Source of the DNA: an uncultured Rickettsiales bacterium
GTDB taxonomy: Bacteria > Pseudomonadota > Alphaproteobacteria > Micavibrionales > GCA-2720935
Direction of reading: 5' to 3'
Length of the DNA stretch: 64,000 nt
NCBI GenBank assembly: GCA_950054255.1
Contig: CATLOR010000001.1
Span: 839,589-903,588, forward strand
Made by a program: the position numbers and the translations under genes. Positions within the stretch are counted from its first letter, which is position 1. Every line of letters starts with the position of its first letter. The notes beneath the pieces are model-generated. The model had not been told where the DNA came from, ran no database searches, and saw only the letters and a list, made by a program, of their open reading frames with translations. Shown here one piece after another: positions 18,120 through 58,754 of the stretch.

Positions 18120-18177
18120 TGTGCTATACTTTCTTCTTAGTTAACTGTGATAATTTAAGAAGTAATGTAAGCGAAGA

Positions 18178-19503: not shown

Positions 19504-19506
19504 TTT

Positions 19507-21750: not shown

Positions 21751-21810
21751 GAATATCTATCGAATGATAGAAGTTATATCAACTTTAACGCTAAAGAGTT
21801 ACTGAAAAGT

Positions 21811-22506: not shown

Positions 22507-22637
22507 TTTTTAACCCTTTTTACCATATTTAATAATCATACATATTTATATAGTTTTAGTCAATGGAAATATTGAGATTGTTAATATATTCATGTTAAAA
22601 TGTCTCACAATTATAGATTTGAATAAGGAGCCCAGTT

Positions 22638-29276: not shown

Positions 29277-29382
29277 TGTCATAAATCTTATAAAACAGCA
29301 TTTTATTTTTTAATTGAATACTGTATAGTGACCGTCTAGAATAAGTGAACGTAATTTTTATGAATCTTAGAGGGTCTCTATT

Positions 29383-30750
29383 GTGTTGAAAAAAACTAAT
29401 TATTTAAAAACGTTAAAGCAATCTGTTTGTTCGGCGGCCTTAGCGGGGTTTTTGATCTTTTCGCCATCTGCTCATGGAACAACATTGGAGCAAGCGATTG
29501 AGATAGCAATTGAGCACAATCCTCGTATCGGTGTTGTTGCGAGAAACCAAGAAGCGGTTGTAGAAGAGTTACATCAAGCAGAAGGGCTGTATTTACCCTC
29601 AGTTGATATTTCAGCAGGTGTCGGTGTTGAAGATACAAGCACACCAGCTGTTCGTGCAGGTAATAATGGCGAATCAGAAGGTCTTCTTGCAACCGATGCG
29701 ACACTCACAATTACTCAAGATTTATTCGATGGATATGAGCGTCAAGGACGTGTTGAACGTCAAAAAGCGCGTATCGAATCGGCTTCTAATAGAGTGTATG
29801 AAAACTCAGAGAATTTAGCACTTGATGTTGTTGGTGCTTATTTAGATGTTATCCGTCAAAGAGAGCTGCTTGCTCTTGCGCGTGAAAATGTGGCTTTCCA
29901 CGTTGAAACACTTGAAGCTTTGGTTAAGAGATTACGTGGTGGAATTGGAACGCGTGCAGATGTTATTCAAACACAGGCACGTTTAGCACGTTCTCGTGCG
30001 ACATTTGTTTCAACAAATAATGATTTAGCGGATGCTGAAGCACTCTATACGCGTTTAGTGGGGCAATATCCAGGCGACTTAGTACTTCCTTCTACTGTTG
30101 AAGATATGATGCCAGCGTCTATGGATGAACTGGTTCAAATGGCAACGATTGATAACCCAACGGTTAAGATTTCAGAAGCTGATGTGAAAGTTGCAAATGC
30201 CGATGTGAATATTTCAGAAGCTGAATTTTATCCTCAAGTATCTCTCCAAGCATCAAGCACGTATGATGAGCGAAAAGATGGGGTGAATACGTATACATAT
30301 CAAAACATTCTAGGATTACGTATGAACTGGAACATCTTTAATGGTGGAACGGACCGCGCAACACGCCAAGAATTCTTAATGCGTGAAGAACAAAGTAAAA
30401 GTCAGCGTTATGATGCTATTTTAGAGGCGCAACAGCAGGCTAGACGTTCTTGGTATGCTTATGTTGCCGCAGGTCAGCAATTACAAGAATTAAGCTCTGC
30501 TGTTATCTTTAACCAGCAAACACGTGAAGCTTATGAACAACAATTCCAAGTCGATCAAAGAACACTCTTAGATGTGTTGGATGCTGAAAATGAGCTCTTT
30601 ACGTCACGTGGACAATTAATATCAGCAGATATTAACAAAATCTTGTCATCTTATCGTATTTTGGCTGTTGCTGGTAAATTGTTAAGATCTTTGAATGTGT
30701 CCGCGCCACAGCAGGCTTTCGAGGCAGTTTTGTACAGTCAAGACGATTGA
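29383..30750 (+). CDS. tolC: TolC-family type I secretion outer membrane protein
   Basis: 455 aa with a GTG start and a signal peptide. TLEQAIEIAIEHNPRI opening and two OEP repeats. Confidence 0.9.
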   Translation: MLKKTNYLKTLKQSVCSAALAGFLIFSPSAHGTTLEQAIEIAIEHNPRIGVVARNQEAVVEELHQAEGLYLPSVDISAGVGVEDTSTPAVRAGNNGESEGLLATDATLTITQDLFDGYERQGRVERQKARIESASNRVYENSENLALDVVGAYLDVIRQRELLALARENVAFHVETLEALVKRLRGGIGTRADVIQTQARLARSRATFVSTNNDLADAEALYTRLVGQYPGDLVLPSTVEDMMPASMDELVQMATIDNPTVKISEADVKVANADVNISEAEFYPQVSLQASSTYDERKDGVNTYTYQNILGLRMNWNIFNGGTDRATRQEFLMREEQSKSQRYDAILEAQQQARRSWYAYVAAGQQLQELSSAVIFNQQTREAYEQQFQVDQRTLLDVLDAENELFTSRGQLISADINKILSSYRILAVAGKLLRSLNVSAPQQAFEAVLYSQDD

Positions 30751-30858
30751 TTCCATAAAAAAATACGTTTTTTTTCATTTTTTTGCAGACAAACGCGATT
30801 AATTTTGCCATAATATACGAAGAGGAAATGCAAATTTCCTCTGGCTTCCTTACTATGG

Positions 30859-30905
30859 CCTGGGTGTCGATCTAATTTTTGATCGGTGCCCCGGTCTTTT
30901 ATTTT
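30859..30905 (+). terminator. Rho-independent terminator-like hairpin downstream of tolC
   Basis: 14-position stem CCTGGGTGTCGATC / GATCGGTGCCCCGG (13 pairs including 3 G-U, 1 mismatch) with an 8-nt loop, followed by TCTTTTATTTTG. Confidence 0.55.
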
Positions 30906-31028
30906 GCCTAAAATAGGCGCTGTTATCATTTATTTTTAAAGATTATCCTTGGTAAATCGTTGAAAGATCGTTATTCTAAAGTGCGTCGTTTAATGCGCTT
31001 GTATTTTCTTATTTTTAAGGTTTCTCAT

Positions 31029-33107
31029 ATGGATACACACTCTTCAGATCAAGATTTATCAACATTTGAATATAAAAAACCAAAAGAAGCAAAAATAGCT
31101 GCGAAATCAAAATTGTTTGGTTTGTTGGTTTTACTCGTTTTGGTTTTAGGTAGTTTCTTTATTGCTAACCAGATTATCAAAGAAGAAAAGAATAATTTAG
31201 AGCAGCATTTAAAACAGCAAATAGAAGTCCTAACATTAGAGCGGTCAAATGTTATTTCTGAGTGGTTAGCGGGGATTTTGAAACAATCCCGTTCAATTAC
31301 AAAAAATGATATTTTTAGATTATATGCGGTTGAGCAAGATTCTAAGAAAGAAGAAGGTAAAGACACGGTCTCTAAATATGCTGATCAATTACCTTATATG
31401 ATTAATGCCTTGAGTGACTTTGTTCAAGATACGGAATATCGCGGAGCGTATATGTTGAATAGGGATGGTGAAACATTTTTAGCAAGTATGGATTCTCGCC
31501 CTTTGGATAATGAACAGAAATTAGAAGCTCTTCGCTTGTTTGATAATGGTCAGGCATCATATTCTGTCGTTCGCTCACGTGATGAAGGACTGGAATTTGA
31601 TTTATTTGTACCAGTGTTCCCTGTTGATGAAACAGCGGGATCAAATAAAATTTCAGCGATTTTTGTTTTTACAATTCCTGTTAAAGAGCAATTTAAGCTG
31701 CTTTTACATGATAAGCCTGTCAATGGTGTTGAGGGCAGTTACTCTTTGTTTCAAAGAACATTTGATGCAAAGATACAAGAAGTTCGCTTGATTAATGGCG
31801 AAACAATATTAGACAGTGCCTTGCCAATTTCTGTGTTTTCAACGCCAACATTGAGTTTTGGTAAAAGAGCAGATTTTAATGGAAGCGCAAATGTCTATTC
31901 TTTTGGAGCGGCTATTCAAGCGACGCCTTTTTATCTTGTGTGGCAAACACCAGAAGATGTTGCAAATGCTCAGATTGATAAATTTATTTTGAATACATAT
32001 CTTGTTGCGATTTTCTTTGTGTTATCGCTTGTAACAGCATTTGGTGCGTTTTGGTGGCGTAATAATAGTGATCATAACAAAGTTCTAGCTGAACAATATG
32101 CTAAATTTGCTCATAAATTGGGTAAACAAAAAATGGTTCTAGATAGCATTAATAATACGATTAAAGAATTTATTACACTTAAAGATCGCTACGGAAAATA
32201 TATCTATGTTAATCCGGCTTTTGCTGAGGCTGTGGGGTCAAGTGTGGAGAATATTTTAGGGCAGGATGATGCCTCGATATTAGGGCATGGAACAGCGATG
32301 AAATTGGAAAAACTGGATGATTTAGTGATTTCTTCTAAAGAAGCTTTGTCTGTTGTTGATGAGATTTATTTGCAAGGTGAAAAACGTCATCTCCAAATTT
32401 CAAAATTCCCCTATTTATCAGAAGATGAAGGTGAAGAAGAACGGAATATTATTACGGTAGCTAGGGATATTACAGACTTAGTAGAAGAGCAAGCTCGTCG
32501 TGAAAAGTCAACAAAGCAAACGGTTCTAGCTTTAATTCGCGCAGTTGAATTAAGAGATCCTCATTTAGCGGGGCATTCTAAAAGAGTGGCGGAGATCGCA
32601 TCACTTGTTGCAAATGAGATTAAGCCTGATCCTCGTATCAGACGCACAGTAGAGATTGCTGCGACCTTATCACAAGTTGGTAAACTTGACATCCCATCAG
32701 AGATTTTAACATCTGAAAAAAGATTATCAGATGAGCAGTTTGAAATCATGAAACGCCATGTTGGGAATGCAGAGAAAATTATTACAGATATTGATTTTGA
32801 TGTCCCAGTTTTAACAGCCATTAGCCATATGTATGAGCGTTTAGATGGGAGCGGTTATCCGCGTGCTATCCATGATGATGAAGTGTCTTTGGAAGGGCGT
32901 ATTTTAGGGGTATGTGATTATTTTTGTGCACGTATCGAACCTCGCTCATACAGGCAAGCGATTTTACCTAAGGATGCTTTGAAATATCTGGAACAGAATA
33001 GTAAGAGATACGATCCTAAAGTTGTACAAGCGCTGAGAACTGTAATTCATTCTTCTGTTGGTGAGCGAATTATTGCTTCTGTTGTTGCTTCACATAAAGA
33101 TATGTAA
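31029..33107 (+). CDS. Transmembrane sensor protein: periplasmic domain, PAS, HD-GYP domain with substituted HD dyad
   Basis: Start set at ATG 31029 (AAGG RBS). TM1 LFGLLVLLVLVLGSFFIANQII, about 270 aa periplasmic, TM2 YLVAIFFVLSLVTAFGAFWW, then PAS (LDSINNTIKEFITL...ITVARDITD). The HD-GYP-like domain has GHSKRV...AATLSQVGKLDIP...KRHVGNAEKI...SHMYERLDGSGYP. LSQVGK occupies the position of the family LHDIGK. Confidence 0.8.
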   Translation: MDTHSSDQDLSTFEYKKPKEAKIAAKSKLFGLLVLLVLVLGSFFIANQIIKEEKNNLEQHLKQQIEVLTLERSNVISEWLAGILKQSRSITKNDIFRLYAVEQDSKKEEGKDTVSKYADQLPYMINALSDFVQDTEYRGAYMLNRDGETFLASMDSRPLDNEQKLEALRLFDNGQASYSVVRSRDEGLEFDLFVPVFPVDETAGSNKISAIFVFTIPVKEQFKLLLHDKPVNGVEGSYSLFQRTFDAKIQEVRLINGETILDSALPISVFSTPTLSFGKRADFNGSANVYSFGAAIQATPFYLVWQTPEDVANAQIDKFILNTYLVAIFFVLSLVTAFGAFWWRNNSDHNKVLAEQYAKFAHKLGKQKMVLDSINNTIKEFITLKDRYGKYIYVNPAFAEAVGSSVENILGQDDASILGHGTAMKLEKLDDLVISSKEALSVVDEIYLQGEKRHLQISKFPYLSEDEGEEERNIITVARDITDLVEEQARREKSTKQTVLALIRAVELRDPHLAGHSKRVAEIASLVANEIKPDPRIRRTVEIAATLSQVGKLDIPSEILTSEKRLSDEQFEIMKRHVGNAEKIITDIDFDVPVLTAISHMYERLDGSGYPRAIHDDEVSLEGRILGVCDYFCARIEPRSYRQAILPKDALKYLEQNSKRYDPKVVQALRTVIHSSVGERIIASVVASHKDM

Positions 33108-34207: not shown

Positions 34208-35152
34208 ATGAAAATTGGATTGCTTATTGACCCTTTAAGAACACTTGCTGTTCATAAGGATACGTCTTGTCGTCTTGCTGCTGAAGCGGAAAGACGGAAT
34301 GCTGAAATATTTTATTTCACATTAGAGGATATTTTTTTAGAAGGAGAGCAAGTCAAAGCATCAGGATGTTATGTTTCTTTTGATGCTGGAAAAGGGTTAA
34401 GCAATAGTGTTCGTTACCTTAATAGAGACGTAATAAATTTAAAAGAATTGGATGTTTTGCTTATTCGCAAAGATCCACCCGTTACGTCAACACATATATC
34501 CATTTTATATTTATTAGAATTGCTGGAAAATGATGTTTTGATGATTAATGCACCACGCGCTATTCGAAATGGTCATTCGAAGTTGCAGACCTTAAAATTC
34601 CCACAATTTCTACCAGAGCAATTAATTGCTTCTAATATTGATCAAATATCAAAATTCATTGAAAAACATAAAGACATCATTGTAAAACCTCTTAATGGTA
34701 TGGGGGGATCCGGTGTTGTTCGTCTTAAGCCGGGGGATAAAACAACAAAATCACTTTTGCAAACGATGGAGAGGGCCTATGGCTATCCGCTCATTGCTCA
34801 AAAATTTATAAAAGAAAGCGTTGAAGGCGAAAAGCGTATTTTCTTATTTGACGGTGATATTTGTGGCGCAATCGTCAAAAAACCAGCGAAAGATGATTTT
34901 CGAGGCAATATCACAGCAGGTGCAACGATTAAAAAAGCAATACTCTCTGAAACAGATAAAGAGATTTGTGAAACTTTAAAACCGTATTTAAAAGAACGGG
35001 GTTTGTTTTTTGTAGGCCTTGATTTAATCGGCCCTTACTTAATTGAAATTAATTCCATTAGTCCTGGGGCAATTAGTTTGGCAAACACAGTTCTTAAGCA
35101 GCCTTTAGAAGAGATTTTTTGGGATAAAATCGAAAGAAAATTAAAAGCATAA
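34208..35152 (+). CDS. gshB: Glutathione synthetase-type ATP-grasp ligase (GshB family), copy 1
   Basis: 314 aa, collinear with E. coli GshB: KDTS, LIRKDPP, IVKPLNGMGGSGV, EGEKRIFLFDG, DFRGNITAGA, FVGLDLIG..LIEIN. Confidence 0.8.
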   Translation: MKIGLLIDPLRTLAVHKDTSCRLAAEAERRNAEIFYFTLEDIFLEGEQVKASGCYVSFDAGKGLSNSVRYLNRDVINLKELDVLLIRKDPPVTSTHISILYLLELLENDVLMINAPRAIRNGHSKLQTLKFPQFLPEQLIASNIDQISKFIEKHKDIIVKPLNGMGGSGVVRLKPGDKTTKSLLQTMERAYGYPLIAQKFIKESVEGEKRIFLFDGDICGAIVKKPAKDDFRGNITAGATIKKAILSETDKEICETLKPYLKERGLFFVGLDLIGPYLIEINSISPGAISLANTVLKQPLEEIFWDKIERKLKA

Positions 35153-35190: not shown

Positions 35191-35223
35191 AGACACACAT
35201 TCTAAGTGTGTTTCCTTTTTTTT
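35191..35223 (+). terminator. Rho-independent terminator after gshB copy 1
   Basis: 8-bp stem AGACACAC/GTGTGTTT with a 7-nt loop, followed by CC and T8. It lies inside the GTG-extended ORF-track version of the next gene. Confidence 0.65.
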
Positions 35224-35244
35224 ATCTATCCAAAAGACGCAGAC

Positions 35245-36003
35245 ATGACTAGAAATAAAATAAGAAAACCTATGGTTGGTGTTGTTTCACACGTTAAACC
35301 ATTAGGAAAATGGAATGTTCATTACACTCATCGTAAATATATTATGCCTTTAAACAATTGTGATTTATGCGCTCTTGTTATTCCGTATCATGATGATGAT
35401 AGCTATTATCGTGCTATTGCAGATAGTTTAGATGGGTTTTTACTTGTTGGTGCACACAGTAATGTTTACCCAGAACATTATAACGGTAATATAGACGATC
35501 GTTATGGCCCGTATGACCCACAAAGGGATAAGGTTTCTATGGTGCTATTAGAAGAAGCACTGATGCAACATAAGCCTATTTTAGGGATCTGTCGTGGGTT
35601 ACAAGATATGAATGTTTTTATGGGAGGGACGCTACATCAATATCTTCCTGACATTACCGATGTGAAGCATCATATTTTGGAATATAGTGATATTCATGAG
35701 GTTTATAAAAATCGTCATGATATCAATGTGGAGGAAAAGACTTTATTAGGTGAAATTGTTCAAAATAAGACAATTAGCGTAAATAGTGTTCATAAACAAG
35801 GGATTAGAGATATTGGTAAAGGCTTAACTATTAATGCCAAAGCCACAGATGATATTGTGGAAGCGGTTACATTAGATGATCATGAAAATTTTGGTATGGG
35901 TGTTCAATGGCATCCGGAATATGATTTTTCTTATGATCCATATTCTAAGGCTATTTTTAAAGCATTCTCAGATGCTATTTACAAAAGGAAATATGAAGTG
36001 TGA
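35245..36003 (+). CDS. Class I glutamine amidotransferase-like / peptidase C26 gamma-glutamyl hydrolase (PuuD-like)
   Basis: Start at ATG 35245. Nucleophile elbow ILGICRGLQDMNV and VQWHPE histidine motif. Its stop overlaps the GTG start of the next gene (GTGA). Confidence 0.8.
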   Translation: MTRNKIRKPMVGVVSHVKPLGKWNVHYTHRKYIMPLNNCDLCALVIPYHDDDSYYRAIADSLDGFLLVGAHSNVYPEHYNGNIDDRYGPYDPQRDKVSMVLLEEALMQHKPILGICRGLQDMNVFMGGTLHQYLPDITDVKHHILEYSDIHEVYKNRHDINVEEKTLLGEIVQNKTISVNSVHKQGIRDIGKGLTINAKATDDIVEAVTLDDHENFGMGVQWHPEYDFSYDPYSKAIFKAFSDAIYKRKYEV

Positions 36004-36968
36004 CACAGAAAGTTTTTGGATATTTCTCTTCACCAATTGAAGACTTAGAAGTTGATATTCTAAGTGGTGTGCGTATTTATAACGAGGCTCAAAAGCGTGG
36101 TTATAAGATGGTCTATATTTATCAAAAGACGCTGAGTTTTGAGAATGGTGCGCTATATGCACAGGCCTGCGAGATGAATTTCTTCCCAGATCGTGACAAA
36201 ATAGAAGATCGTTACGAACAAGGTGAAATGTATAAATTTAATATGCATGATCTAGATGTTTTATTTTTTAGAAAGCCGCCCCCTTTAAATGAAGAATATA
36301 TGGCATATACATATTTCCTTGAAGCCTTAGAAGAGCAAGGCGTGTTATGTATTAATAGTCCTAAAGGAATGAGAGGTGGCCATTCAAAGTTACAGACATT
36401 GAAATTCCCAGAATATATTATACCGACCCTTTTTAGTTTGAATGTGGATGAGATTGTCAGTTTTGTTCATGAGCATAAAAAAGCGGTTATTAAACCGCTT
36501 GATGCAAAAGGCGGTGAAGGGATCTTGATGCTTCATCATGATGACTTAAATTTAAAATCAATGATTGAAACGGTTAGAAAAGCCTATGGGAATTTAGTCA
36601 TTGTACAAAAATTTATCCCCGAAGCGGTAACAGAAGGGGATAAGCGTGTTCTATTATTTGATGGAAAACCTTATGGAGCTATGCTTCGTCAAGCCAATAA
36701 ATCTGACTTTAGGACAAATGTAACAGCAGGTGGGACTTTTGTAAAAACAGATCTTACAGATCGTGAAAAAGAAATTTGTGATGTTATTGGTGAATATCTC
36801 AGAGATAATGGCTTATTTATGGTGGGGCTTGATTTGATTGGAGGTTATATCACAGAGATCAATTGCACAACCCCTGGGGCTATGACCTATATCAACAAAT
36901 TATACGATATCAAACTAGAAGAAAAATTCATGGATATCGTCGATGAGAAAACGCAAGCAAAACCATAA
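36000..36968 (+). CDS. Divergent GshB-family ATP-grasp ligase, copy 2
   Basis: 322 aa; FFRKPPP, GGHSKLQTLKFP (shared with copy 1), IKPLDAKGGEGI, EGDKRVLLFDG, DFRTNVTAGG, MVGLDLIGGYITEIN. The N-terminal substrate-binding region is more diverged (no KDSS-like motif). Confidence 0.7.
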   Translation: MTQKVFGYFSSPIEDLEVDILSGVRIYNEAQKRGYKMVYIYQKTLSFENGALYAQACEMNFFPDRDKIEDRYEQGEMYKFNMHDLDVLFFRKPPPLNEEYMAYTYFLEALEEQGVLCINSPKGMRGGHSKLQTLKFPEYIIPTLFSLNVDEIVSFVHEHKKAVIKPLDAKGGEGILMLHHDDLNLKSMIETVRKAYGNLVIVQKFIPEAVTEGDKRVLLFDGKPYGAMLRQANKSDFRTNVTAGGTFVKTDLTDREKEICDVIGEYLRDNGLFMVGLDLIGGYITEINCTTPGAMTYINKLYDIKLEEKFMDIVDEKTQAKP

Positions 36969-37764: not shown

Positions 37765-38610
37765 TTATGAATTAATGCCCTTGTTGAAATCTAAAACGAG
37801 GCGAGGGCCTTTGTCAGCACTGACAGGTGGAAGTGTGAATACCTTAACTGTCATATCGTCGCCGTTTGTTGTAATGCGCATTGTTGAATATTCAGGGAAT
37901 TGCTTGGATATATAGCCTGTAATTAAGCCCTCTTTCTTTGATGTCCATGTCTTATCTGCAGCCCAATCGGTCTTATCAAAAGTGATGACAATATCGCTTT
38001 CATCTTTTGTGATATCATAATTCATTTCACTGTTAGGGGCAAAGTCAACAACAAGGCGCGTTCCAGCATTGAAGCTCCCAAAGCGAATATCTACAATTTC
38101 ATGAGGGAAACCGAGTTTATCAACAGCCATATTGTCATCTTCACCTATCATAGCTTTTGCGAGATCTGTTGGCGCAGTATTTGATGGTGATGTTTCACTC
38201 ATCATTTTATCATCTGGAGCCATATTTGGAATGTCTGTTTCTACTTCTGCATTATCGAGATCATCAGGTGTTTCTGCAGGGGGATTTGCATCTTCAAGAC
38301 GGCGGCTTACGGCAGGGTCTGTTAATTTAGATAGCTCTGTAATAAGGGTTTGAATATCAGATTCAATGGCAACTAAATTTTGGATATTTGGCTCAACAGC
38401 GCGGAAATCACGTTCCAGTAGATCTATACGTTGCTCAATCTTCTTCATTTGATCTTCAAGTACCTGTTGCTCTTTGTCACCAGAACTACCGATATATTGC
38501 AAAGGAGAGCCGATTGTTTCTTTTGTATCGGCGCAACCAAATAGCAAACTGCTCAGAACTAATCCGAGCATTATATGTGCTAGCAATGATATATTGTGGT
38601 TAAAAGTCAT
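37765..38610 (-). CDS. Lipoprotein with coiled-coil, acidic/Pro-rich linker and C-terminal AMIN-like domain
   Basis: Lipobox LLFGC. C-terminus IVDIRFGSFNAGTRLVVDFAPNSEMNYDI...VKVFTLPPVSADKGPRLVLDF resembles AMIN (AmiC/PilQ N-terminal) domains. The start codon overlaps the chaperone stop (ATGA). Confidence 0.55.
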   Translation of the reverse strand: MTFNHNISLLAHIMLGLVLSSLLFGCADTKETIGSPLQYIGSSGDKEQQVLEDQMKKIEQRIDLLERDFRAVEPNIQNLVAIESDIQTLITELSKLTDPAVSRRLEDANPPAETPDDLDNAEVETDIPNMAPDDKMMSETSPSNTAPTDLAKAMIGEDDNMAVDKLGFPHEIVDIRFGSFNAGTRLVVDFAPNSEMNYDITKDESDIVITFDKTDWAADKTWTSKKEGLITGYISKQFPEYSTMRITTNGDDMTVKVFTLPPVSADKGPRLVLDFNKGINS

Positions 38611-39425
38611 GGGCGATTAAAGGTAAATTCGTGAAAAATCCTATTATTATATTCGTTTTTTCCTTCGTAGATAACACGAAGCTTTTTGATAGAGGAGGGG
38701 ATGTCTTCATAAATGGGGATAGAGACATTTTTTTGTGCGGTTTCAGGGAAGATAGAAACATTGTTTACGACCGCGAGAAGGTTTTCGTTACTTGTGTCAT
38801 TCGCATCAAAAACCTTTAAGCTTCCATAGGTGCTGGCGTCACCAGTGCGAGAAATGGACACAATGAATTGGTCTTGTTGATCTGATGCAATGCTTTTTTT
38901 ATAATCAACAGCAGTGATTTCCGCATTAACTTCCAAATTGCCTTGGCGGAGAATAACAGGGATGCTGATTGATAGGTTTAATGACAGGCTAATCCCTGCA
39001 GGGTTGTCTTGATAGTCTTTTGGATCAGAGAGTTGTTTGAAGAGAAGGTGTGAACGATATTCACCATCTTCAAGTCCTGCTGGTTTACGAACAGCGATAC
39101 GGATGGCTTGTTTATCACCAGGAGCGAGTGTTACTTGGCGCGGGCTAAAGCGAATGAAATCTTGTGATGTTTTAATAGATGCATATCGTGGATCATTTTC
39201 TTCGATTATTTCATAACTTCCGTTTTCATCAACGATTGTATTAAACCATTCTGTTCTAAATGTTGCGACTTTATCAGATCTGTTGATGATAGTGATGACT
39301 TGTGAACGTGTGCGGTCTTCGAAAACGGCTCTGTAAGGGGTCACCATAATGCTAGCTATGCCATTGAAAGGAATAGATAAAGTAATTAAGAATAGACATA
39401 AAAAAATAAAAAAACGACTCGGCAC
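38607..39425 (-). CDS. PapD-like periplasmic pilus chaperone
   Basis: 272 aa with a signal peptide. IMVTPYRAVFEDRTRSQVITIINRSDKVATFRTEW and FSPRQVTLAPGDKQAIRIAV...EYRSHLLF follow the two-domain chaperone pattern. Confidence 0.7.
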   Translation of the reverse strand: MPSRFFIFLCLFLITLSIPFNGIASIMVTPYRAVFEDRTRSQVITIINRSDKVATFRTEWFNTIVDENGSYEIIEENDPRYASIKTSQDFIRFSPRQVTLAPGDKQAIRIAVRKPAGLEDGEYRSHLLFKQLSDPKDYQDNPAGISLSLNLSISIPVILRQGNLEVNAEITAVDYKKSIASDQQDQFIVSISRTGDASTYGSLKVFDANDTSNENLLAVVNNVSIFPETAQKNVSIPIYEDIPSSIKKLRVIYEGKNEYNNRIFHEFTFNRP

Positions 39426-39514
39426 GAGGATCCTCCTGATTCATATAAAATTATAGAGTGATTTGCCCTATAAAACCAAAGACTTTTTTAGATTTTTTCT
39501 TTATTTTTCAAGGA

Positions 39515-39982
39515 TTAAAAGTTCGCAGTTATTTCAACTTCACCTGTGTAAGCGCCATCAGAATAATAATTTCCATTTCCCGATGTGGATAGGGTTGTTC
39601 CGACATTAAAGGTTGCGGATCCGCCTGGATCTGTTGTGATTGTTGCAGGGTCTGTGACGGCATCTGATATTGAAAAATATTGTGGTCCTATACCATCATG
39701 AAGGACATCTGTTGCCGCAAAGCTAACGGTAATTGTTGTGTTGCCGGGGAAGCTTTGTAGTCGAATACGGGCGGAGTCACCATCTGATAGGACGACAATA
39801 TGGCTTGGGTTGGCTGTAATATCACCGTTTGGAGCGATAATGAGATCGCGTGGAGCGTCATTATCGACGATTGTGAGGTCGCCATAAATAAATTGTCTTA
39901 ACACATCAATAGTTTGTGCCGTTGCCGTAAGGGGGGCAAGGCTTACGAGTGTTAAGAATGTTATAAGGGCATATTTTTTCAT
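39515..39982 (-). CDS. DUF4402-like secreted subunit (155 aa, putative minor pilin)
   Basis: Start moved to ATG 39982 (MKKYALITFLTLVSLAPLTATAQT). Beta-rich, ending GSATFNVGTTLSTSGNGNYYSDGAYTGEVEITANF. Confidence 0.65.
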   Translation of the reverse strand: MKKYALITFLTLVSLAPLTATAQTIDVLRQFIYGDLTIVDNDAPRDLIIAPNGDITANPSHIVVLSDGDSARIRLQSFPGNTTITVSFAATDVLHDGIGPQYFSISDAVTDPATITTDPGGSATFNVGTTLSTSGNGNYYSDGAYTGEVEITANF

Positions 39983-40011
39983 TGATCCTATAGTAGGCGA
40001 TTCTAACAAAG

Positions 40012-40043
40012 AAAAAAGGCCTGAATTCAATTCAGGCCTTTTT
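40012..40043 (-). terminator. Strong hairpin/U-tract between the two subunit genes (intra-operon terminator or attenuator)
   Basis: Minus strand: AAAAAGGCCTGAATT-G-AATTCAGGCCTTTTT, a perfect inverted repeat followed by TTTTTTC. It is 22 nt after the stop of the 193-aa gene. Confidence 0.75.
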
Positions 40044-40065
40044 AAAATTCTTATATTTACAGATA

Positions 40066-40647
40066 TTAGTATGCAACTGTTACGTTGTATGTACCTGTGT
40101 ATGATCCAGCTGCTTCATAAGCGCCTGTTCCTGCGATTGTGCTTAATGTCGCACCAACGTAGAATGTAGCGTCACCAGAACCATCTGTTGTTACTTGGTC
40201 GTCGGCGCCATCGTCAACGAATGTATCAACTGTGAAATCAGGTGTACCAGGAGCACATGCACCACATGATAATGTGATAGGAGCCGCTGGTAATTCGATG
40301 TTCATAACTGTTGTTGCAAGCGCACCACCAATATCAAATTGTGCACGGTCACCATCAACTGAAGATACGATGAAATCGTCTGTAGCGCCACCAACGTTTG
40401 TTACTGTTACGCTGTTAGCTGCATCAGCACCGATATCAAGAGTTGCTACGGCACCACCACCGCCACCACGGCGAGATGCTACGATTGTACCAAAGTCAAT
40501 AGCTGATGTTTCTGTTACTGTGAACGCCGCTGCTGTTGTTACACTAGCGTTAGACGCCGTCGTTACTTGTGCCTGTACAGGCGAAGACATAGCAATAACT
40601 GCTGCTGCAGCGATAGCCATGTAAGATGTTTTCGTAAATAGTTTCAT
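40066..40647 (-). CDS. DUF4402-like secreted subunit (193 aa, putative major pilin)
   Basis: Signal peptide MKLFTKTSYMAIAAAAVIAMSSPVQA. A/T/G-rich beta protein with AIDFGTIV near the N-terminus, ending ATFYVGATLSTIAGTGAYEAAGSYTGTYNVTVAY. GAGGA RBS. Confidence 0.65.
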   Translation of the reverse strand: MKLFTKTSYMAIAAAAVIAMSSPVQAQVTTASNASVTTAAAFTVTETSAIDFGTIVASRRGGGGGAVATLDIGADAANSVTVTNVGGATDDFIVSSVDGDRAQFDIGGALATTVMNIELPAAPITLSCGACAPGTPDFTVDTFVDDGADDQVTTDGSGDATFYVGATLSTIAGTGAYEAAGSYTGTYNVTVAY

Positions 40648-40978
40648 GCTTCCTCACTTTCAATTTACGTTACGTTTACGTGGTTACTTTTATAAAAAAG
40701 TTTTCAAACCAAGAGGCTTAAATGTATCTGAGATTTATTGCGCAGGGCAAAATATCCTTTCTGTTCATATAAGCACCTTGACGACTGACAAGGTCGATAT
40801 AACCATTATGGCAGGTAAAGTCTTAAAGAATACTTAAGACGTACTTAAAAATATCACACAGATTTTATAAAATCAACAAGCAATTAACAGTTTGTTTTTT
40901 TAGGTGTTTTCTGATAGTTTTGAAGAGTATACATTAATATCCACAACTTTACTCACAAAGTTGTAACTAAGCGTCGCT

Positions 40979-43900
40979 ATGAAGATAAGTAAAAAAATGA
41001 AAAAAATAATGGCTTTTCAGGCTGTTTTTATGACAGTGGCTATGGCTTCTATGCCGATGGCTTATGCTTCTACGAGTTTGCAAGATTTGGCAAAACGCTT
41101 TTTATCAACCGTTGGTGAAAAATTAGAGAATGCGGAAGAGTCTAGGCGTGCTAAAGCGAAAGGTAACGTTAATTCACTGGTTGGAATTGCTGATGGTGAA
41201 GAGCTTGTTTTTGCTCTAAAAAAAGGAAGTTTAGTTCTTTCTGAGGCGCTTTTTGCTCAAAAGAAAGAAGGAAGGCTGTATCTATACTTTGATGATTTCT
41301 TAAGAGCTGTTGATTTTCCAATCGATATTGATCTTGAGGCTAAGAAGGCAGATGGATGGTTTGTGCGTGAAGGTAATCGCTTCTCAATGGATCTAGAGGC
41401 ACAAGAAATTATAGTTAATGAGTATCAAATTCCTTTAGAAGCGAGTGATTATTTTATATTAGAAGAAGGTTTTGGGGGGCTTTATATTGAGAAAGCTGTT
41501 CTTGAACGTGCTTTTGGAGTTGGGTTGGATTTCAAAGTTTCGAATCTTGAAATCCGTTTTTCAAGTGATTTTGCTCTTCCTGTTGAGGAGAAACTATATA
41601 GACAACAGAGAAAAGAGAGTCTGATTTTCACGAAAAATGAAGCAGAACTTCCTGAGATTAAGCAAGACTATAAAATGGCAACGATGCCTTTTGTTGATGT
41701 GCAAATGAGGAATTCATATCAAAAAAGAGAAGGTGCGGATGAAGCTCAAACAAATGCATCCTATTCTGTGATAACGGCGAGTGATTTCTTGTATGGTGGT
41801 TTAAAAACATATACATCAGGTAGTGATACTGAGAAGATTGAGCAATTTCGTTTTGATTGGACGCGAGAATCTCAATCAGAAGATGAAACTATTTTAGGAT
41901 TTAATAAAATACAAATGGGGGATGTGACGACACCGCGTTTGAATGTATTTAGAGGTTCTGGGCAAGAATTTGGCTTTAGACTCAGTAATGAAAGCTCTTT
42001 TCTTAACAAAGAAAATGAAAAAACAGATGTAACTCGTTTTGAAGGCGATATTCAGCCAGGCTGGGATATTGAGATTTATCGTAATAATATCTTAGTTGCA
42101 ACTCACACGGCTGATTCTACGGGGCAATATATTATTGAAGATGTGCCTCTTACTTTTGGAGAAAATAACTTTCGACTTGTTTTTTATGGCCCGCAAGGAC
42201 AGGTTTCAGAACGTGAAGAACTTATTATTAGGCGCAATAATCGATTTGATATTGGTGAGGCAACTTATAGTGTGTCCTTAACAAACCAAAATGAAATCAC
42301 CTATAGAAATGAAGATGCTGGCTATGCAGATTTACCAGATTCAGGTTCTCCGAACTTAATAGGGACCATGGATTTTGGTTTAAGTGATGAATATTCAATG
42401 TCTTTAGGTGGCCGTATTCTTGAACGTAATAAAGAGCAGTTAATTCAAGTTGCAACAGGGCTAACAGGGTATTTTGATTCTGGCATCTATGAAGCTAACT
42501 TAGGAGTTGAAGATACAGGAGAGTATGCGATTGAATTATCAGCTCTGACAAATATAAATAGGCAATCTGTTCGGGCGAGTGCTGAGTTTCGTTCGGATGA
42601 CTTTGATAAAACGCGCCCTGATGTAGATAATTTGATTCATTTATCAGATGTAAGTGTGAGTGGTGAAATAGCACCTTCTGTTAATTATCTAGCGACGCAT
42701 GAATATAGAAAATTTGAAAGCGGGAATAATAGGCAACAATTAGGCTTTGATGTTTCTAAGAAGGTTAGAAAAGGTCTTTTTGGCGTTGGTTATGACTATG
42801 TTAAGAGTGATTTTTCTGGAATTGATACAAATACTCAGACAGTCTCTTTAAATGGGCGTTATAATTTGGGCGGATACTTTCTGCGTGGGAATATAAATTA
42901 TGATATTGAGCCAGAACCAGGGGCGCGTTCTTATTTAGTTGCTGCGCATACAAGGCTTAATGAGAAGCTAACAGGGGATGTTCAATTAGAGCATACACCA
43001 AGTAATTCAAGAACAGAATTAAGAACACGTCTTAGTTACACAGGTGAGTATTTCACATTAACACCAGATTTACGTGTTAATTCAGATAATGAAATCTTTG
43101 CTTTTACAACGTTGCGTTTTGGTCTTGGTGCTGATCCATATTCTGATAATTTAAAAGTTCATAGAAATGGTCTAACATCACGTGGAGGTGTTTCTGCTCG
43201 CGTTTTCTTGGATGAAGATGGTGATGGTATTTGGGATATATATGAACGCCCTCTACAAGATGTAAAAGTCATGGGTAAACAAATTGCTCAGTTTGATACA
43301 ACAAATGAGCATGGTGTTGCTTTTATTCCATCATTTAATGCGGGGCAATTAACCGATATTACGATTGATCCGAGAACGCTTGAAGATCCATATTATGTTT
43401 CTCTAAATAAAGGAAACTCAATTCGCGCACGCTCTGGTCAGGTCACGCAAATGGATTTCCCGATTGCAATCTCTGGAGAGATTGATGGGTCTGTTTTCTT
43501 TTATGATCGTTATGGACAAAGACAGCCTGTTGCCAATATGAACCTTTTCTTAGTGAATATGGATGGCAAAATAGTGAATACAGCGCTTACGGCTTATGAT
43601 GGTTTTTATGTGATGAGTGATATCTTTCCAGGTGATTATCACGTGATCTTAGATCCAATTGTTTTGGAGCAAAATAAGCTCGTTCAAATAGAGCCTAAAG
43701 GCTATCATTTCGGAGCGTCAGGGACCGTGTTTTATGATCAAAACTTTACGACTTATTATGATGATATAAAGCCTCAAAAAATGGCTGAGATTAATGCTAA
43801 TCCAAAAACAGAAACAAAAATGGTCTTAGAGTTAGGGCGGTTCAAATCAAAGCTGATGCTAGCGGTTCAATGGCTTAAATATAAAGTGAATTATAGAAGT

Positions 43901-44101
43901 CTGTTATCAGGGCTTTCAACATATGAAGGCCTTGTTGAAAACGCCTTGAATGAGGGTGATATACGTTATCCCTTACAGTTAGGTCCGATCAAAGATATCA
44001 AGCGTGCAAAATCGATTTGTGAAGCCTTAAGCGAAGAGGGTGTTGATTGTATGTTGCGTGCGATCTCTACTGAAGAGGATGCCAAAGAGCGCAAAGTGTA
44101 A
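40979..44101 (+). CDS. Usher-like outer membrane protein (1040 aa) with C-terminal SPOR-like domain
   Basis: Signal peptide ...MASMPMAYAS. Usher-like middle segment GDIQPGWDIEIYRNNILVATHTADSTGQYIIEDVPLTFGENNFRLVFYGPQGQVSERE. Long beta-strand-rich region. CarboxypepD_reg-like segments (VFLDEDGDGIWDIYERPLQDVKV; DGKIVNTALTAYDGFYVMSDIFPGDYHV). C-terminus LELGRFKSKLMLAVQW...RYPLQLGPIKDIKRAKSICEALSEEGVDCMLRA resembles SPOR. Confidence 0.55.
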   Translation: MKISKKMKKIMAFQAVFMTVAMASMPMAYASTSLQDLAKRFLSTVGEKLENAEESRRAKAKGNVNSLVGIADGEELVFALKKGSLVLSEALFAQKKEGRLYLYFDDFLRAVDFPIDIDLEAKKADGWFVREGNRFSMDLEAQEIIVNEYQIPLEASDYFILEEGFGGLYIEKAVLERAFGVGLDFKVSNLEIRFSSDFALPVEEKLYRQQRKESLIFTKNEAELPEIKQDYKMATMPFVDVQMRNSYQKREGADEAQTNASYSVITASDFLYGGLKTYTSGSDTEKIEQFRFDWTRESQSEDETILGFNKIQMGDVTTPRLNVFRGSGQEFGFRLSNESSFLNKENEKTDVTRFEGDIQPGWDIEIYRNNILVATHTADSTGQYIIEDVPLTFGENNFRLVFYGPQGQVSEREELIIRRNNRFDIGEATYSVSLTNQNEITYRNEDAGYADLPDSGSPNLIGTMDFGLSDEYSMSLGGRILERNKEQLIQVATGLTGYFDSGIYEANLGVEDTGEYAIELSALTNINRQSVRASAEFRSDDFDKTRPDVDNLIHLSDVSVSGEIAPSVNYLATHEYRKFESGNNRQQLGFDVSKKVRKGLFGVGYDYVKSDFSGIDTNTQTVSLNGRYNLGGYFLRGNINYDIEPEPGARSYLVAAHTRLNEKLTGDVQLEHTPSNSRTELRTRLSYTGEYFTLTPDLRVNSDNEIFAFTTLRFGLGADPYSDNLKVHRNGLTSRGGVSARVFLDEDGDGIWDIYERPLQDVKVMGKQIAQFDTTNEHGVAFIPSFNAGQLTDITIDPRTLEDPYYVSLNKGNSIRARSGQVTQMDFPIAISGEIDGSVFFYDRYGQRQPVANMNLFLVNMDGKIVNTALTAYDGFYVMSDIFPGDYHVILDPIVLEQNKLVQIEPKGYHFGASGTVFYDQNFTTYYDDIKPQKMAEINANPKTETKMVLELGRFKSKLMLAVQWLKYKVNYRSLLSGLSTYEGLVENALNEGDIRYPLQLGPIKDIKRAKSICEALSEEGVDCMLRAISTEEDAKERKV

Positions 44102-44111: not shown

Positions 44112-44561
44112 CTACATTTGAGAAATTAAACGCCATTTATGTTCGGCGCTATTTTTTAATGCTTTTTGATGTTGTTGAAATTGCGATCTAGCCAAGTTTG
44201 CGAGTTTATTAAAAGTGATAGCTTCTTTTGAAGGAACTGTGTAGCGGTTATAAGCTTTGTATGCACATGCAAAGGTAAGTGCGATCGCGGTTGTTCCAAT
44301 GATGGTTGTTGTGATTAAAAACAACGAAATTGGCGCTGTGGCAATTTGTTGGAACAGAAGAATACTAGCCCCTGCATAACATAAAGCCATAGAGTTTTTC
44401 GTCGCTTTGTTAAATGAAATATGATTATCAGGTGTTCTTTTTAATAAAGAATTGAAATCATTATAAGCACTTTCTTGATCACCGTTATAGGCGTGCTGTA
44501 TATAGGCGCGAATATCAGCGTTCTTATCTATAAAGGTCATGAATTTATTTTTATAGGTCAT
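44112..44561 (-). CDS. Hypothetical membrane protein (149 aa), paralogue of 47252-47695
   Basis: N-terminal soluble part MTYKNKFMTFIDKNADIRAYIQHAYNGDQESAYNDFNSLL, then two hydrophobic segments. GGGAGG RBS. Confidence 0.55.
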   Translation of the reverse strand: MTYKNKFMTFIDKNADIRAYIQHAYNGDQESAYNDFNSLLKRTPDNHISFNKATKNSMALCYAGASILLFQQIATAPISLFLITTTIIGTTAIALTFACAYKAYNRYTVPSKEAITFNKLANLARSQFQQHQKALKNSAEHKWRLISQM

Positions 44562-47251: not shown

Positions 47252-47695
47252 TTAAATGATTTTTGGCGCAAAGCTAACTACTTTATTTTTGTTAACATAG
47301 GCGTTCGCTTTGGTTTTTAAGTCCTCTAAAGCACGCTTTTCTGGGTTAGGTATGAACGCATTATAAGTGTGCATCATAGCAAAAAAGCCACCTAGATTTA
47401 ACGCGAGCTGAACGCCAGTGTGAAGAGCAGCTGTTGTAAAGCTATTAGCTTCAATTCCCTCTATTGTTCCGCTGATGAAAGGCATTATACAACCAATCTT
47501 AAACCACATACCGAAAAATTCAGAATGGATAGAAGCTTTATTATTGGGCTGTTGATCTCTTAACTTTTGAAAATCAGTATAAGCATTGTCAAAACCATAT
47601 TGTTGGTCGTCTTGATAAGCTGCAATAATCCAAGTTTTAACCTTAGGGTTCTTGTCCAAAAAGGCTTTGAAGTCGTTATGGGTCTTAATTGTCAT
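47252..47695 (-). CDS. Hypothetical membrane protein (147 aa), paralogue of 44112-44561
   Basis: MTIKTHNDFKAFLDKNPKVKTWIIAAYQDDQQYGFDNAYTDFQKL... shares the F..F.DKN....I..AY..DQ....Y.DF..L pattern and hydrophobic C-half with the 149-aa protein. Confidence 0.55.
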   Translation of the reverse strand: MTIKTHNDFKAFLDKNPKVKTWIIAAYQDDQQYGFDNAYTDFQKLRDQQPNNKASIHSEFFGMWFKIGCIMPFISGTIEGIEANSFTTAALHTGVQLALNLGGFFAMMHTYNAFIPNPEKRALEDLKTKANAYVNKNKVVSFAPKII

Positions 47696-47806: not shown

Positions 47807-49576
47807 TTATCTCACATAAATATGGATTTCTGTGCTATCTGCTTCTGTGCTTCTTGAAGCTGAAACGAGCATTTTTCCATTCGGAAGACCCATATTAGAA
47901 AGGGTACGAACAACATCTTCAGCCTTTTGCTTGGCTTGTGTTGTCGCAAGAGCGAGCTCAGCCGATGTCCCTTCATCTGGGGCAACAGCAATCACTTCAA
48001 ATTGTGCATCTGGATTGATGCGGATCGCATCATTTAAGGCGCTGTAAACAGGTTGTTGGTAATCAACATTTTGTTGATTGAAGCGAATAACGGCGAGAGG
48101 GCGCTTGCCTTCTGAACGTAAACGATCAACACCAGCCCCTGAAAGAGGGTCTGTTACACGGCGGTAATATTGGTTTGTTAAGCTACGACCAAAGAGTTCG
48201 CCATTTGTAATACCTGAAGCCAATGTTTGTAGGTTTTTACGCTCGCTAGCAAGATATGCTGTACGGCGGTTGATATCATCTGTGATTTCGTTTAGAAGGC
48301 GGTTGATCACAACAACTGTGTTTGTTACATCATCTTCTAAAATTTCCAAAGAGGCGTGATCTTGCTCAAGAGCTCCAGATAGACCAAATGTCGCACGTGC
48401 TGCTTCTAGTAAAAATTCTGACATATCAGCTTGCGCAGATACGCGTTGTGCAAGTTTTCCTAACGCATCAACATCTTCTGCTAAACGATCTAAGCGATCT
48501 TGAGCAATGTTCCAGCTATTCACCAAACGTGGGTTGCCAGGTGTTGAGCCTGCTTGTAAGCGTGATTGAATCGCCGCTACAACAGCGTAGTAATCAGCAG
48601 ATTGAACTTCTGCAGAAAAACGAACTGTTTCTAACTGGTCTTTTGCAATAGAAATGGCTTCTTGTAATTGTGTAAGATCTGTTCTCATTTCACCGATTTT
48701 ACGGGTAATTAGTGTTTCTTGACCTAATTCATCAATCTCTTCAATTTCAAACATGAAGCCAGGTTGTGGCGCAATATTTGGATAAGGTTGGTCACTCATA
48801 GATTTTGTCGAGCGCGCTGATGGTGTGAATACAGTATCATTACTTGCTGGAAGCTTCGACGTTTCGAAATGGTAAGACGGCATAATACTGCTATAACGAC
48901 TGTAATCAATATCAGGTAAAGGCGGCATCGCATTGCTTGTTTGTGGGGCAGATGTCATACCATTAATTTCAACAGCAGGTGCCATCATTTGTGGCTGATA
49001 CATAGGTTGTTGGAATTGACTTTGTTGATATTGAGGTGGCGTAGGTTGCTCATAAACTGGCTGATAAATAGGCGCAGGCATTGGTTGCGCAGCAGGTGCA
49101 ATGGGTGCCATTGATGTAGCCGAAATAGGGGGCATAGGTGCAGGAACTGTATCTGCACCAATTTGACCAGAATTTTGTGGAAGCAGTGATACGGCTTGTG
49201 CATTTTGTTTTGCCGCGTCATATACCATAGGCGCTGTGCCTAATTGCTGATCGATGCTTTGAATGTTTTTTTGTACATTTGGCGCTGATAAATACGGTTG
49301 TAATTGTGTTGGTGCAGGCATAGCGTCTGCTGGCATTGCCATCATTTGCATTTGTTGTTGAGGCATATAGCCTTGCGCAGGCATTGGTTGTGCGTATCCA
49401 TATGGTGCATAAGGCGCTGGTTGTAGCTGTTGTTGAGCAACAGGATAAACAGGCACAGCATCTGTTGTGTATGCGGGTGCTTGCTGAGCAAGAGCTGTGC
49501 TACTTAGAAAAAGAGCGATCCCACCAGATACGAGTGACTGAGATAAAATACGAAAAGAGCGTTTTGTAGTGTTCAT
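47807..49576 (-). CDS. Exported P/Q/M-rich protein (589 aa) with coiled-coil centre
   Basis: Signal peptide ...ALFLSSTALAQQ. About 200 aa of low-complexity P/Q/M/A/Y-rich sequence, then a helical central region. The C-terminal ~100 aa (FEVIAVAPDEG...AKQKAEDVVRTLSNMGLPNGKM) only weakly recalls the OmpA_C/MotB layout. Confidence 0.6.
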   Translation of the reverse strand: MNTTKRSFRILSQSLVSGGIALFLSSTALAQQAPAYTTDAVPVYPVAQQQLQPAPYAPYGYAQPMPAQGYMPQQQMQMMAMPADAMPAPTQLQPYLSAPNVQKNIQSIDQQLGTAPMVYDAAKQNAQAVSLLPQNSGQIGADTVPAPMPPISATSMAPIAPAAQPMPAPIYQPVYEQPTPPQYQQSQFQQPMYQPQMMAPAVEINGMTSAPQTSNAMPPLPDIDYSRYSSIMPSYHFETSKLPASNDTVFTPSARSTKSMSDQPYPNIAPQPGFMFEIEEIDELGQETLITRKIGEMRTDLTQLQEAISIAKDQLETVRFSAEVQSADYYAVVAAIQSRLQAGSTPGNPRLVNSWNIAQDRLDRLAEDVDALGKLAQRVSAQADMSEFLLEAARATFGLSGALEQDHASLEILEDDVTNTVVVINRLLNEITDDINRRTAYLASERKNLQTLASGITNGELFGRSLTNQYYRRVTDPLSGAGVDRLRSEGKRPLAVIRFNQQNVDYQQPVYSALNDAIRINPDAQFEVIAVAPDEGTSAELALATTQAKQKAEDVVRTLSNMGLPNGKMLVSASRSTEADSTEIHIYVR

Positions 49577-49839: not shown

Positions 49840-49916
49840 GCACCCGTAGCTCAACTGGATAGAGCATTTGACTACGAATCAAAAGGTTTGGGGTTCGAAT
49901 CCCTACGGGTGCGCCA
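49840..49916 (+). tRNA. tRNA-Arg (anticodon ACG), CCA encoded
   Basis: Manual cloverleaf: acceptor GCACCCG/CGGGTGC, D arm GCTC-AACTGGATA-GAGC, anticodon arm TTTGA-CTACGAA-TCAAA, variable loop AGGTT, T arm TGGGG-TTCGAAT-CCCTA, discriminator G plus CCA. 77 nt. Confidence 0.95.
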
Positions 49917-58488: not shown

Positions 58489-58754
58489 TTACTGTTCTTC
58501 CTTTTCCTCAAAATGGCTCTAAAGCATTTCACACCAGTGAGCGAAACTCGCCGACTGATGGACATCCTTGGACGCTTTTAAAACCAGTTTTTGTAATGAG
58601 GTTTTTAATACAAAGTCCTATATTTAGCGCCTTTATAATAGAGAAAACATCACTTTGTCAAGATCTTAGAAATATTTTTTACAGATTAACTTTTTCATAA
58701 TTCTTGATGTGTATACTCAGCCTTACATAGTGTAGAGATTTTAATAGGAGTGTT

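Follow-up and report, generated by a model that had tools for sequence, protein, structure and literature searches.

Positions 37765 to 44101 of a 64,000-nucleotide stretch of DNA from an uncultured Rickettsiales bacterium (the whole stretch is referred to here as the window) hold five neighbouring genes, and the question they raise is whether two small DUF4402-like proteins, a PapD-like protein, a lipoprotein and a 1040-amino-acid (aa) exported protein together build a surface fibre, and what cell wall-binding domains would be doing in such a machine. Of the fibres with which bacteria adhere, chaperone-usher pili are understood best, and they serve as drug and vaccine targets. The original prediction for this locus, made from the DNA alone, had described a distinct and poorly described fibre system of the chaperone-usher type. 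That overall reading is supported by the predicted usher fold, by the homologies of the individual proteins, and by the linkage of their genes across genomes. We consider it likely that the cluster is a complete chaperone-usher-type fibre assembly system from a deep-branching, uncharacterised clade.

All five open reading frames (ORFs) that had been proposed were recovered with the same coordinates and termini (Table 1). Each of the five proteins carries a Sec or lipoprotein signal sequence, as read from the sequence, and the lipoprotein gene visibly overlaps the stop codon of the chaperone gene by ATGA. The short subunit ORF would span 39515-40030 on the minus strand and encode 171 aa if a TTG start were used; the 155-aa form carries a normal signal peptide. 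The divergent region that separates the usher gene from the subunit operon is presumed to hold the promoters of both, and a sigma-70-like scan gave a single weak match there, with no enrichment of the scan over shuffled sequence. No NCBIfam family matched any of the five proteins. An antisense ORF of 130 aa (40232-40624, plus strand) lies entirely within the long subunit gene; it was rejected as a gene and is taken as a by-product of Ala/Thr/Gly-rich codon usage.

The gene set is not peculiar to this genome. Relatives of the usher were collected at 81 loci, 80 of them from other genomes and one a second copy of the present locus, and DUF4402 genes and a chaperone gene adjoin the usher in 70 of the 81, the exceptions being mostly short contigs. 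Counted from the usher, the association of DUF4402 with chaperone and usher genes, which had been proposed as a check, is thus recurrent, and chance adjacency of the divergently transcribed genes can be ruled out on this basis. Lipoprotein homologs were present at 52 of the 81 loci. The same gene set also occurs in Polaromonas and Pseudoalteromonas records annotated independently by the Prokaryotic Genome Annotation Pipeline (PGAP). No second copy was found elsewhere in the 64-kb window.

Table 1. Coordinates of the fibre assembly cluster, of the domains predicted in its products, and of a type I secretion set and its neighbour in the same window.
Feature	Position	Strand	Remarks
Long-type DUF4402 subunit	40066-40647	-	193 aa; C-terminus ...GSYTGTYNVTVAY
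Short-type DUF4402 subunit	39515-39982	-	155 aa from ATG at 39982; C-terminus ...GAYTGEVEITANF
PapD/CsuC-like periplasmic chaperone	38607-39425	-	272 aa; GTG start; signal peptide
Accessory lipoprotein	37765-38610	-	281 aa; lipobox LLFGC, Ala at +2
Usher-like outer-membrane assembly platform	40979-44101	+	1040 aa
Divergent intergenic region, subunit operon/usher gene	40648-40978	.	331 bp
Terminator-like hairpin	40013-40043	-	14-bp stem then T run, directly 3' of long subunit gene
N-terminal periplasmic domain of usher	41201-41578	+	residues ~75-200, AlphaFold model
Predicted 24-strand beta-barrel of usher	41690-43135	+	residues 238-719; 6 + 18 strands by DSSP on the model
Plug domain of usher	42029-42232	+	residues 351-418; 6-strand sandwich inserted after barrel strand 6
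C-terminal periplasmic beta-sandwich domains of usher	43181-43768	+	residues 735-930
SPOR-like C-terminal domain of usher	43814-44068	+	residues 946-1030; two conserved Cys
Helical/coiled-coil module of lipoprotein	38266-38532	-	residues ~27-115; motif (K/E)PxIxxLxAxExDxxxLIxxL
AMIN-like C-terminal domain of lipoprotein	37774-38115	-	residues ~166-279
HlyD-like protein	18178-19503	-	type I secretion set
ABC transporter with C39 domain	19507-21750	-	type I secretion set
2212-aa adhesin	22638-29276	+	nine DUF5801 repeats + Big_9 + Cadherin_4; flanked by secretion genes
TolC-like OEP protein	29383-30750	+	type I secretion set
PAS + HD_5 (HD-GYP-type) protein	30960-33107	+	after type I secretion set

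By predicted fold and by profile comparison, the 1040-aa protein is an usher. An alignment of 64 homologs was used as input to AlphaFold (AF2), and the resulting model had a mean predicted local distance difference test score (pLDDT) of 88 and a predicted template modelling score (pTM) of 0.69. From the N terminus, it comprises a signal peptide, a helix at residues 34-60, an alpha/beta domain at 75-200 that is confidently modelled, six strands at 238-336, a six-strand sandwich at 351-418, eighteen strands at 428-719, beta-sandwich domains at 735-930, and a last domain of alternating strands and helices at 946-1030. An arrangement of 6 + 18 strands with an insert after strand 6 is the architecture of PapC and FimD (PDB 2vqi and 3rfz). 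When the model was compared with the PDB using Foldseek, the top 18 matches were all FimD or PapC (E 1e-29 to 2e-15), including the PapC/FimD translocation pores 2vqi, 3ohn, and 3fip, and SdrD B domains and unrelated porins ranked far below them. The idea that this protein is a barrel usher is therefore borne out at the level of the model, which predicts both the 24-strand barrel and the plug.

Profile comparisons with hhalign used CsuD and three other ushers as archaic references and FimD, HtrE, and YehB as classical ones. The usher profile matched the archaic CsuD-type group (Prob 98.7, E 2.5e-16, over 530 columns) and the classical FimD-type group (Prob 96.4, E 1e-9), and the C-terminal domains, compared with those of archaic ushers, gave Prob 88 and E 2.8e-6. 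The plug carries the most conserved motif of the family, FRLVFYGPQGQ, which aligns with the plug regions of FimD and CsuD; what had originally been called an usher-like middle segment is this plug. The original prediction had described CarboxypepD_reg-like beta-sandwiches. Pfam does match part of residues 735-930, with CarboxypepD_reg below its cut-off (24.5 bits against 32.3) and SdrD_B above (31.4 against 29.7), the SdrD_B-like stretch corresponding to the second C-terminal domain. The helix at residues 34-60 is restricted to those family members that also bear the C-terminal tail.

Homology likewise identifies the 272-aa protein as a divergent PapD/CsuC-like chaperone, as had been proposed. 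A profile of 57 chaperone sequences aligned with archaic chaperones at Prob 97.7 and E 2.4e-12, the second domain lying outside the alignment, and with classical chaperones at Prob 81.8. Among 407 homologs, many have PF00345 or are named as fimbrial chaperones. In CsuC, Arg89 on strand F binds the C-terminal carboxylate of the subunit (PMC4654587). The invariant Y123-R124 of the cluster chaperone aligns with the Tyr-Arg of archaic chaperones that includes this carboxylate anchor, and R32, in TPYRAVF, aligns with Arg8 of FimC in ATRVIY. A search of the PDB with the chaperone profile returned matches only at E ~0.5, and five of the seven listed were chaperones of chaperone-usher systems. The signal peptide is present only if translation begins at the GTG at 39425. 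Public calls of 246 aa start at an internal ATG and lack it. Exported proteins of this family may be missed more widely by automated annotation.

The two small proteins belong to DUF4402 (PF14352), in line with the earlier assignment: the long subunit scored 48.2 bits and the short one 33.7, both above the Pfam cut-off of 25.2. Among small ORFs adjoining related ushers, 97 of 130 matched DUF4402 and none matched SCPU, the family of archaic pilins. Both subunits are Ala/Thr/Gly-rich with a poly-Gly loop. In a global hhalign alignment, the subunit profile matched SCPU pilins at Prob 92 and E 8.5e-8, and negative controls of the comparison stayed below Prob 0.5. The CsuA/B sequence that served as a reference is 99.4% identical to an annotated csuAB gene. 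Three colinear motifs are common to DUF4402 and SCPU proteins, namely an N-terminal extension, LxFG, and a C-terminal YxGTxxVxVx(Y/F), the last represented in the long subunit by YTGTYNVTVAY. The extension, which is confined to one class of subunit, and the conserved aromatic strand at the C terminus fit what would be expected of subunits whose putative incomplete Ig-like fold is completed by a donor strand. The long subunit also contains an RRGGGGG loop (40430-40470, minus strand, residues ~59-66), which is kept in close homologs and not in the wider family. A match of the 130-sequence subunit profile to the MS2 coat protein (E 1e-4) was judged compositional, reflecting a Thr/Gly/Val-rich stretch.

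Subunits of this family fall into two classes. Measured from the predicted signal-peptide cleavage site to the FG motif, family members show a bimodal spacing of either 11 or 26-27 residues, and exactly one long and one short subunit occur together at 26 loci, as they do in the window. Here, the long subunit, whose ATG is preceded by an AGGA ribosome-binding site, has about 27 residues between the cleavage site and LxFG, including a 15- to 16-residue N-terminal extension. The mature N terminus of the short subunit lies about 11-12 residues before an FG-type motif (here IYG), with no extension. In the chaperone-usher model, a subunit that lacks an N-terminal extension has no strand to donate and sits at the tip. 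The short subunit would thus be the tip or initiator, and the long subunit would be the major polymerising one.

The terminator-like hairpin fits this division of labour. Among relatives, a hairpin with a minimum free energy of -15 kcal/mol or lower follows 72% of long-type genes and 14% of short-type genes (Mann-Whitney p = 5e-10), an enrichment consistent with strong expression of the major subunit. In pap/fim-type operons, too, a hairpin follows the gene for the major subunit. The one in the window may work as an attenuator and so determine how much major subunit is made relative to the minor one.

The second part of the question concerns the cell wall. The original prediction had assigned a SPOR-like domain to the end of the usher and an AMIN-like domain to the end of the lipoprotein, and these assignments stand for the family as a whole, whose profiles support them, while the copies in the window itself fall short of the Pfam cut-offs. 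Of 32 aligned usher tails, 12 matched SPOR (PF05036) at E <= 0.1, the best at 4e-13, and the top PDB match of the tail profile was the SPOR domain of CwlC (1x60, E 0.003). Two cysteines that are nearly invariant in the tails probably form a disulfide. The lipoprotein family is defined by its helical module, the profile of which by itself finds 48 ORFs in the loci. Among 47 members, the C terminus was AMIN in 12, AMIN-like in 8, and SPOR in 19. The AMIN and AMIN-like versions are those of alphaproteobacterial loci, and SPOR takes the place of AMIN on the same module in gammaproteobacterial versions (Marinomonas, Bowmanella, and Marinifaba). A profile of AMIN-type lipoprotein C termini matched AmiC-type amidases that happen to be encoded in the collected loci, over residues 34-144 (E ~1e-29), and in the one amidase scanned, from locus L059, Pfam places AMIN at residues 38-138. 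The family profile also matched the AMIN region of Myxococcus xanthus PilQ (3jc8, E 0.001). As a separate observation, two copies of a coiled-coil plus SPOR lipoprotein occur in gammaproteobacterial loci L029, L034, L043, L057, L058, and L066, in most cases downstream of the usher; in the window there is one copy, of the AMIN type, beside the chaperone gene.

The usher tail and the lipoprotein travel together. In the 59 loci with adequate flanks, both were present in 35 and neither in 17, while a tail without the lipoprotein was seen in 5 and a lipoprotein without the tail in 2 (Fisher p = 1.3e-8). Since both are missing from about a third of family ushers, the module would be an accessory, dispensable for assembly. 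The exchange of two unrelated wall-binding domains on one scaffold points to wall binding itself as the selected property. The usher platform may be tethered to, or localised by, peptidoglycan, as had been suggested from the domain content.

Several results weigh against the interpretation developed so far or lend it nothing, and they should be considered together. The family is unstudied, and no fibre has been observed. Pfam Usher (PF00577) matches neither the window protein (at E <= 1) nor any of 72 homologs, and the N-terminal domain of the usher has no profile similarity to the N-terminal domains of known ushers (Prob 1.7). Direct sequence searches of the PDB with the usher, chaperone, and lipoprotein gave nothing significant. 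The chaperone scored 19.7 bits against PapD_N (PF00345), below the curated cut-off of 23. For the subunits, similarity between DUF4402 and SCPU is confined at default settings to 31 C-terminal columns (Prob 88.9), and sequence and profile searches of the PDB found no pilin. The AF2 subunit model, built from 8 homologs, was poor (pLDDT 48.6), and Foldseek returned no match to it at E <= 1e-3 and only generic beta-sandwiches, so that the model was not used. There is no gene for a two-domain adhesin such as CsuE or FimH, and neither DUF4402 nor PF14352 was mentioned in the literature searched. With respect to the wall-binding modules, Pfam found no SPOR match in the full-length 1040-aa protein, and the tail scanned by itself reached 15.5 bits (E 0.022, cut-off 21); the lipoprotein scored 17.4 bits against AMIN (PF11741; E 0.0048, cut-off 20.5). 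Finally, the tail in the window reads VLELG, with Glu at the position of the conserved beta1 Gln.

This last substitution bears on the strongest of the competing explanations, according to which the SPOR- and AMIN-like modules do not position the machine at septum or pole, and are general peptidoglycan anchors that brace the usher against pulling forces, or have lost wall binding in favour of protein-protein interactions. The beta1 Gln of SPOR domains is highly conserved and contacts denuded glycan, as with Q270 of RlpA and Q251 of FtsN (PMC6895207). Glu at this position makes peptidoglycan binding by the window tail uncertain. Only 6 of the 32 usher tails keep Gln, the relatives otherwise carrying Asn, Ser, or Ala, which suggests that glycan specificity is altered or lost in parts of the family. 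The absence of both tail and lipoprotein from about a third of the ushers also sits well with this explanation. On the other side, the replacement of AMIN by SPOR is most easily explained by selection for attachment to the wall, and domains of either type are known to target proteins to the septum or the poles (PMC2572700, PMC5285504, PMC10653833, and PMC6895207). On balance, modules without such placement, or with binding lost, are a possibility that we take seriously and nevertheless find doubtful.

On the interpretation that we favour, a fibre assembly system with an attachment to the wall, the five proteins would be exported to the envelope, as their signal sequences indicate, and the chaperone would capture the two DUF4402 subunits in the periplasm, with contacts of the kind its homology implies. 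The strand-F arginine, R124, would anchor the conserved aromatic C terminus of each subunit in the manner of CsuC. The usher, to judge from its predicted fold, would recruit the chaperone-subunit complexes and thread the fibre outward. Given the two-class pattern, the short subunit would enter first and form the tip, and the long subunit would polymerise behind it, each 15- to 16-residue extension being inserted into the preceding subunit, with the terminator hairpin keeping the long subunit in excess. The SPOR-like tail, together with the AMIN domain of the co-translated outer-membrane lipoprotein, may attach the platform to peptidoglycan, a role suggested by their co-occurrence. The likeliest purpose of such attachment would be placement at septal or polar wall, or bracing against load, by analogy with the AMIN domains of PilQ.

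Comparison with known systems places the cluster nearest to the archaic (sigma) pili, such as Csu of Acinetobacter baumannii and CupE of Pseudomonas aeruginosa. Both combine small subunits with a chaperone and an usher, and in profile comparisons the subunits, chaperone and usher of the cluster each match archaic systems best. The Tyr-Arg pair that anchors the subunit C terminus in CsuC appears from the alignment to be conserved in the cluster chaperone, and the N-terminal extension, LxFG, and C-terminal aromatic strand are common to archaic and cluster subunits. The differences are also substantial. Archaic subunits carry SCPU (PF05229), whereas those of the cluster type are DUF4402 proteins. 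A two-domain tip adhesin like CsuE was present in all archaic operons fetched, and none was found in the cluster or the rest of the window. Unlike archaic ushers, the cluster usher has a SPOR-like tail and an N-terminal helix, and the coiled-coil AMIN/SPOR lipoprotein is a further addition. Archaic and classical ushers are closer to each other (E 6.5e-35) than the cluster usher is to the archaic ones (E 2.5e-16), and no comparable gap exists for the chaperone (2.4e-12 versus archaic chaperones, against 7.8e-10). Since it lacks SCPU subunits and a two-domain tip adhesin, we treat the cluster as a separate variant of the chaperone-usher kind and do not count it among the archaic systems.

Other comparisons are more partial. 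Classical pili (type 1, FimA-H with FimC and FimD; P pili, with PapD and PapC) supply the best structural matches of the usher model, and the predicted plug lies between strands 6 and 7 in the cluster usher, as it does in theirs. Their profile similarity is weaker (chaperone Prob 81.8, subunits Prob 71.7), and the cluster differs from them in having no Fimbrial family match, no lectin-domain adhesin, and an usher N terminus of unrelated sequence. The secretin PilQ of type IVa pili likewise belongs to an outer-membrane fibre machine with peptidoglycan-binding modules. Through its AMIN domains, the machine is brought to the peptidoglycan of the septum, and hence to the poles, in P. aeruginosa and M. 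xanthus (PMC5285504 and PMC10653833). PilQ is a secretin with AMIN on the pore protein itself, whereas the cluster has an usher and carries AMIN on a separate lipoprotein. SPOR proteins such as FtsN, DamX, DedD, RlpA, and CwlC show a similar alternation of strands and helices to that of the usher tail; there, the domain is part of an inner-membrane division protein or a lytic enzyme, and here it is fused to an outer-membrane usher.

The proximity to archaic systems raises the alternative that the same machinery makes something other than a pilus, namely a thin amorphous coat or capsule-like polymer of DUF4402 subunits. There are precedents in the Caf1 capsule of Yersinia and in protein U of the Myxococcus spore coat, and the archaic SCPU group, in which the nearest relatives of the cluster lie, includes the spore-coat protein U pathway. 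The cluster also encodes just two small single-domain subunits with no two-domain adhesin, and their Ala/Thr/Gly-rich composition with a poly-Gly loop would suit a coat. However, having two classes of subunit, long and short, with a hairpin behind the long-type gene, recalls the operons of tip-plus-shaft pili, and a donor-strand polymer is itself a molecular fibre, so that a coat would differ mainly in morphology. We regard a coat as improbable, more so than the alternative for the wall modules discussed above. The weakest alternative, in which the 1040-aa protein would serve as a general outer-membrane channel or as a surface adhesin of the SdrD/carboxypeptidase-regulatory type with no functional relation to the operon, takes its appeal from SdrD_B being the sole Pfam match above cut-off and from the PGAP name given to its homologs, and is already contradicted by usher fold and profile matches that span the barrel, plug, and C-terminal domains and by the DUF4402 and chaperone genes that adjoin the usher gene at 70 of 81 loci, which leaves it a very slight chance.

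A bolder proposal goes beyond the assembly system that we favour. The cluster may represent a fourth deep-branching chaperone-usher clade, beside the classical, alternative, and archaic ones, in which DUF4402 is the pilin, the SPOR tail and the AMIN/SPOR lipoprotein couple the usher to the septum, and the machine is thereby set up where the cell divides and inherited at the new poles. Taken as a whole, this is speculative, and we would not expect every part of it to hold. If true, it would provide a counterpart to the polar placement of type IV pili by PilQ AMIN domains and the first function for DUF4402.

The family is widespread. A scan of species-representative genomes found at least 308 loci with the usher family, and an exhaustive search with the usher profile gave 4,929 clusters (50% identity) at E <= 1e-30. 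Carriers include Alphaproteobacteria (many of them metagenome-assembled genomes [MAGs] labelled Rickettsiales or Micavibrio), Vibrio, Marinomonas, Alteromonadales, and Marinobacter, with further examples in Nitrospinaceae, Myxococcota, and Acidobacteriota, and the overall distribution takes in Alpha-, Beta-, and Gammaproteobacteria. In Polaromonas, Pseudoalteromonas, Novosphingobium, and Sphingopyxis, the locus is carried on a plasmid or secondary replicon. The nearest relative of the usher at the species level, with 46% identity, comes from a MAG labelled Rickettsiales.

This family is invisible to standard annotation. The Pfam Usher model misses the usher, and PGAP names its homologs "carboxypeptidase-like regulatory domain-containing protein" or hypothetical, with neighbours given as "DUF4402 domain-containing protein," "molecular chaperone," and "SPOR domain-containing protein." Recognition of the family would give DUF4402 a role and widen the diversity of the pathway beyond its three accepted classes. 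It would also bring in the co-occurrence of peptidoglycan-binding modules on an usher and on its partner lipoprotein, which is undescribed for chaperone-usher systems in the literature searched, where a search for chaperone-usher systems with SPOR found nothing relevant. A role of the cell wall in positioning or bracing usher machines becomes open to test, and cultured carriers exist in Marinomonas, Shewanella pealeana, Pseudoalteromonas xiamenensis, and the Polaromonas plasmid pE5SP1.

The rest of the window contains several other features of interest. A second adhesion system, a type I secretion set, lies upstream at 17169-33107 (Table 1). Between it and the fibre cluster, a Peptidase_C26 gene of the gamma-glutamyl hydrolase type (35206-36003) is enclosed by a pair of paralogs, both glutathione-synthetase/RimK-like ATP-grasp genes (34208-35152 and 36000-36968), and the three may form a small module for peptide ligation and hydrolysis. 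On the other side, the valyl-tRNA synthetase gene is flanked by genes for proteins of 149 aa (44112-44561) and 147 aa (47252-47695), both on the minus strand and without a Pfam match; their 40% identity over the first 55 residues (E 8e-9) makes them appear to be paralogs. Another protein without a Pfam match, of 589 aa and encoded at 47807-49576 (minus strand), combines a signal peptide with a long region rich in Gln, Pro, and Met. The sole RNA family hits in the window are a tRNA-Arg(ACG) gene at 49840-49916 (plus strand) and an Rfam match to the ffh small RNA at 58524-58575 (minus strand), which scored 40.2 bits against a gathering score of 35.

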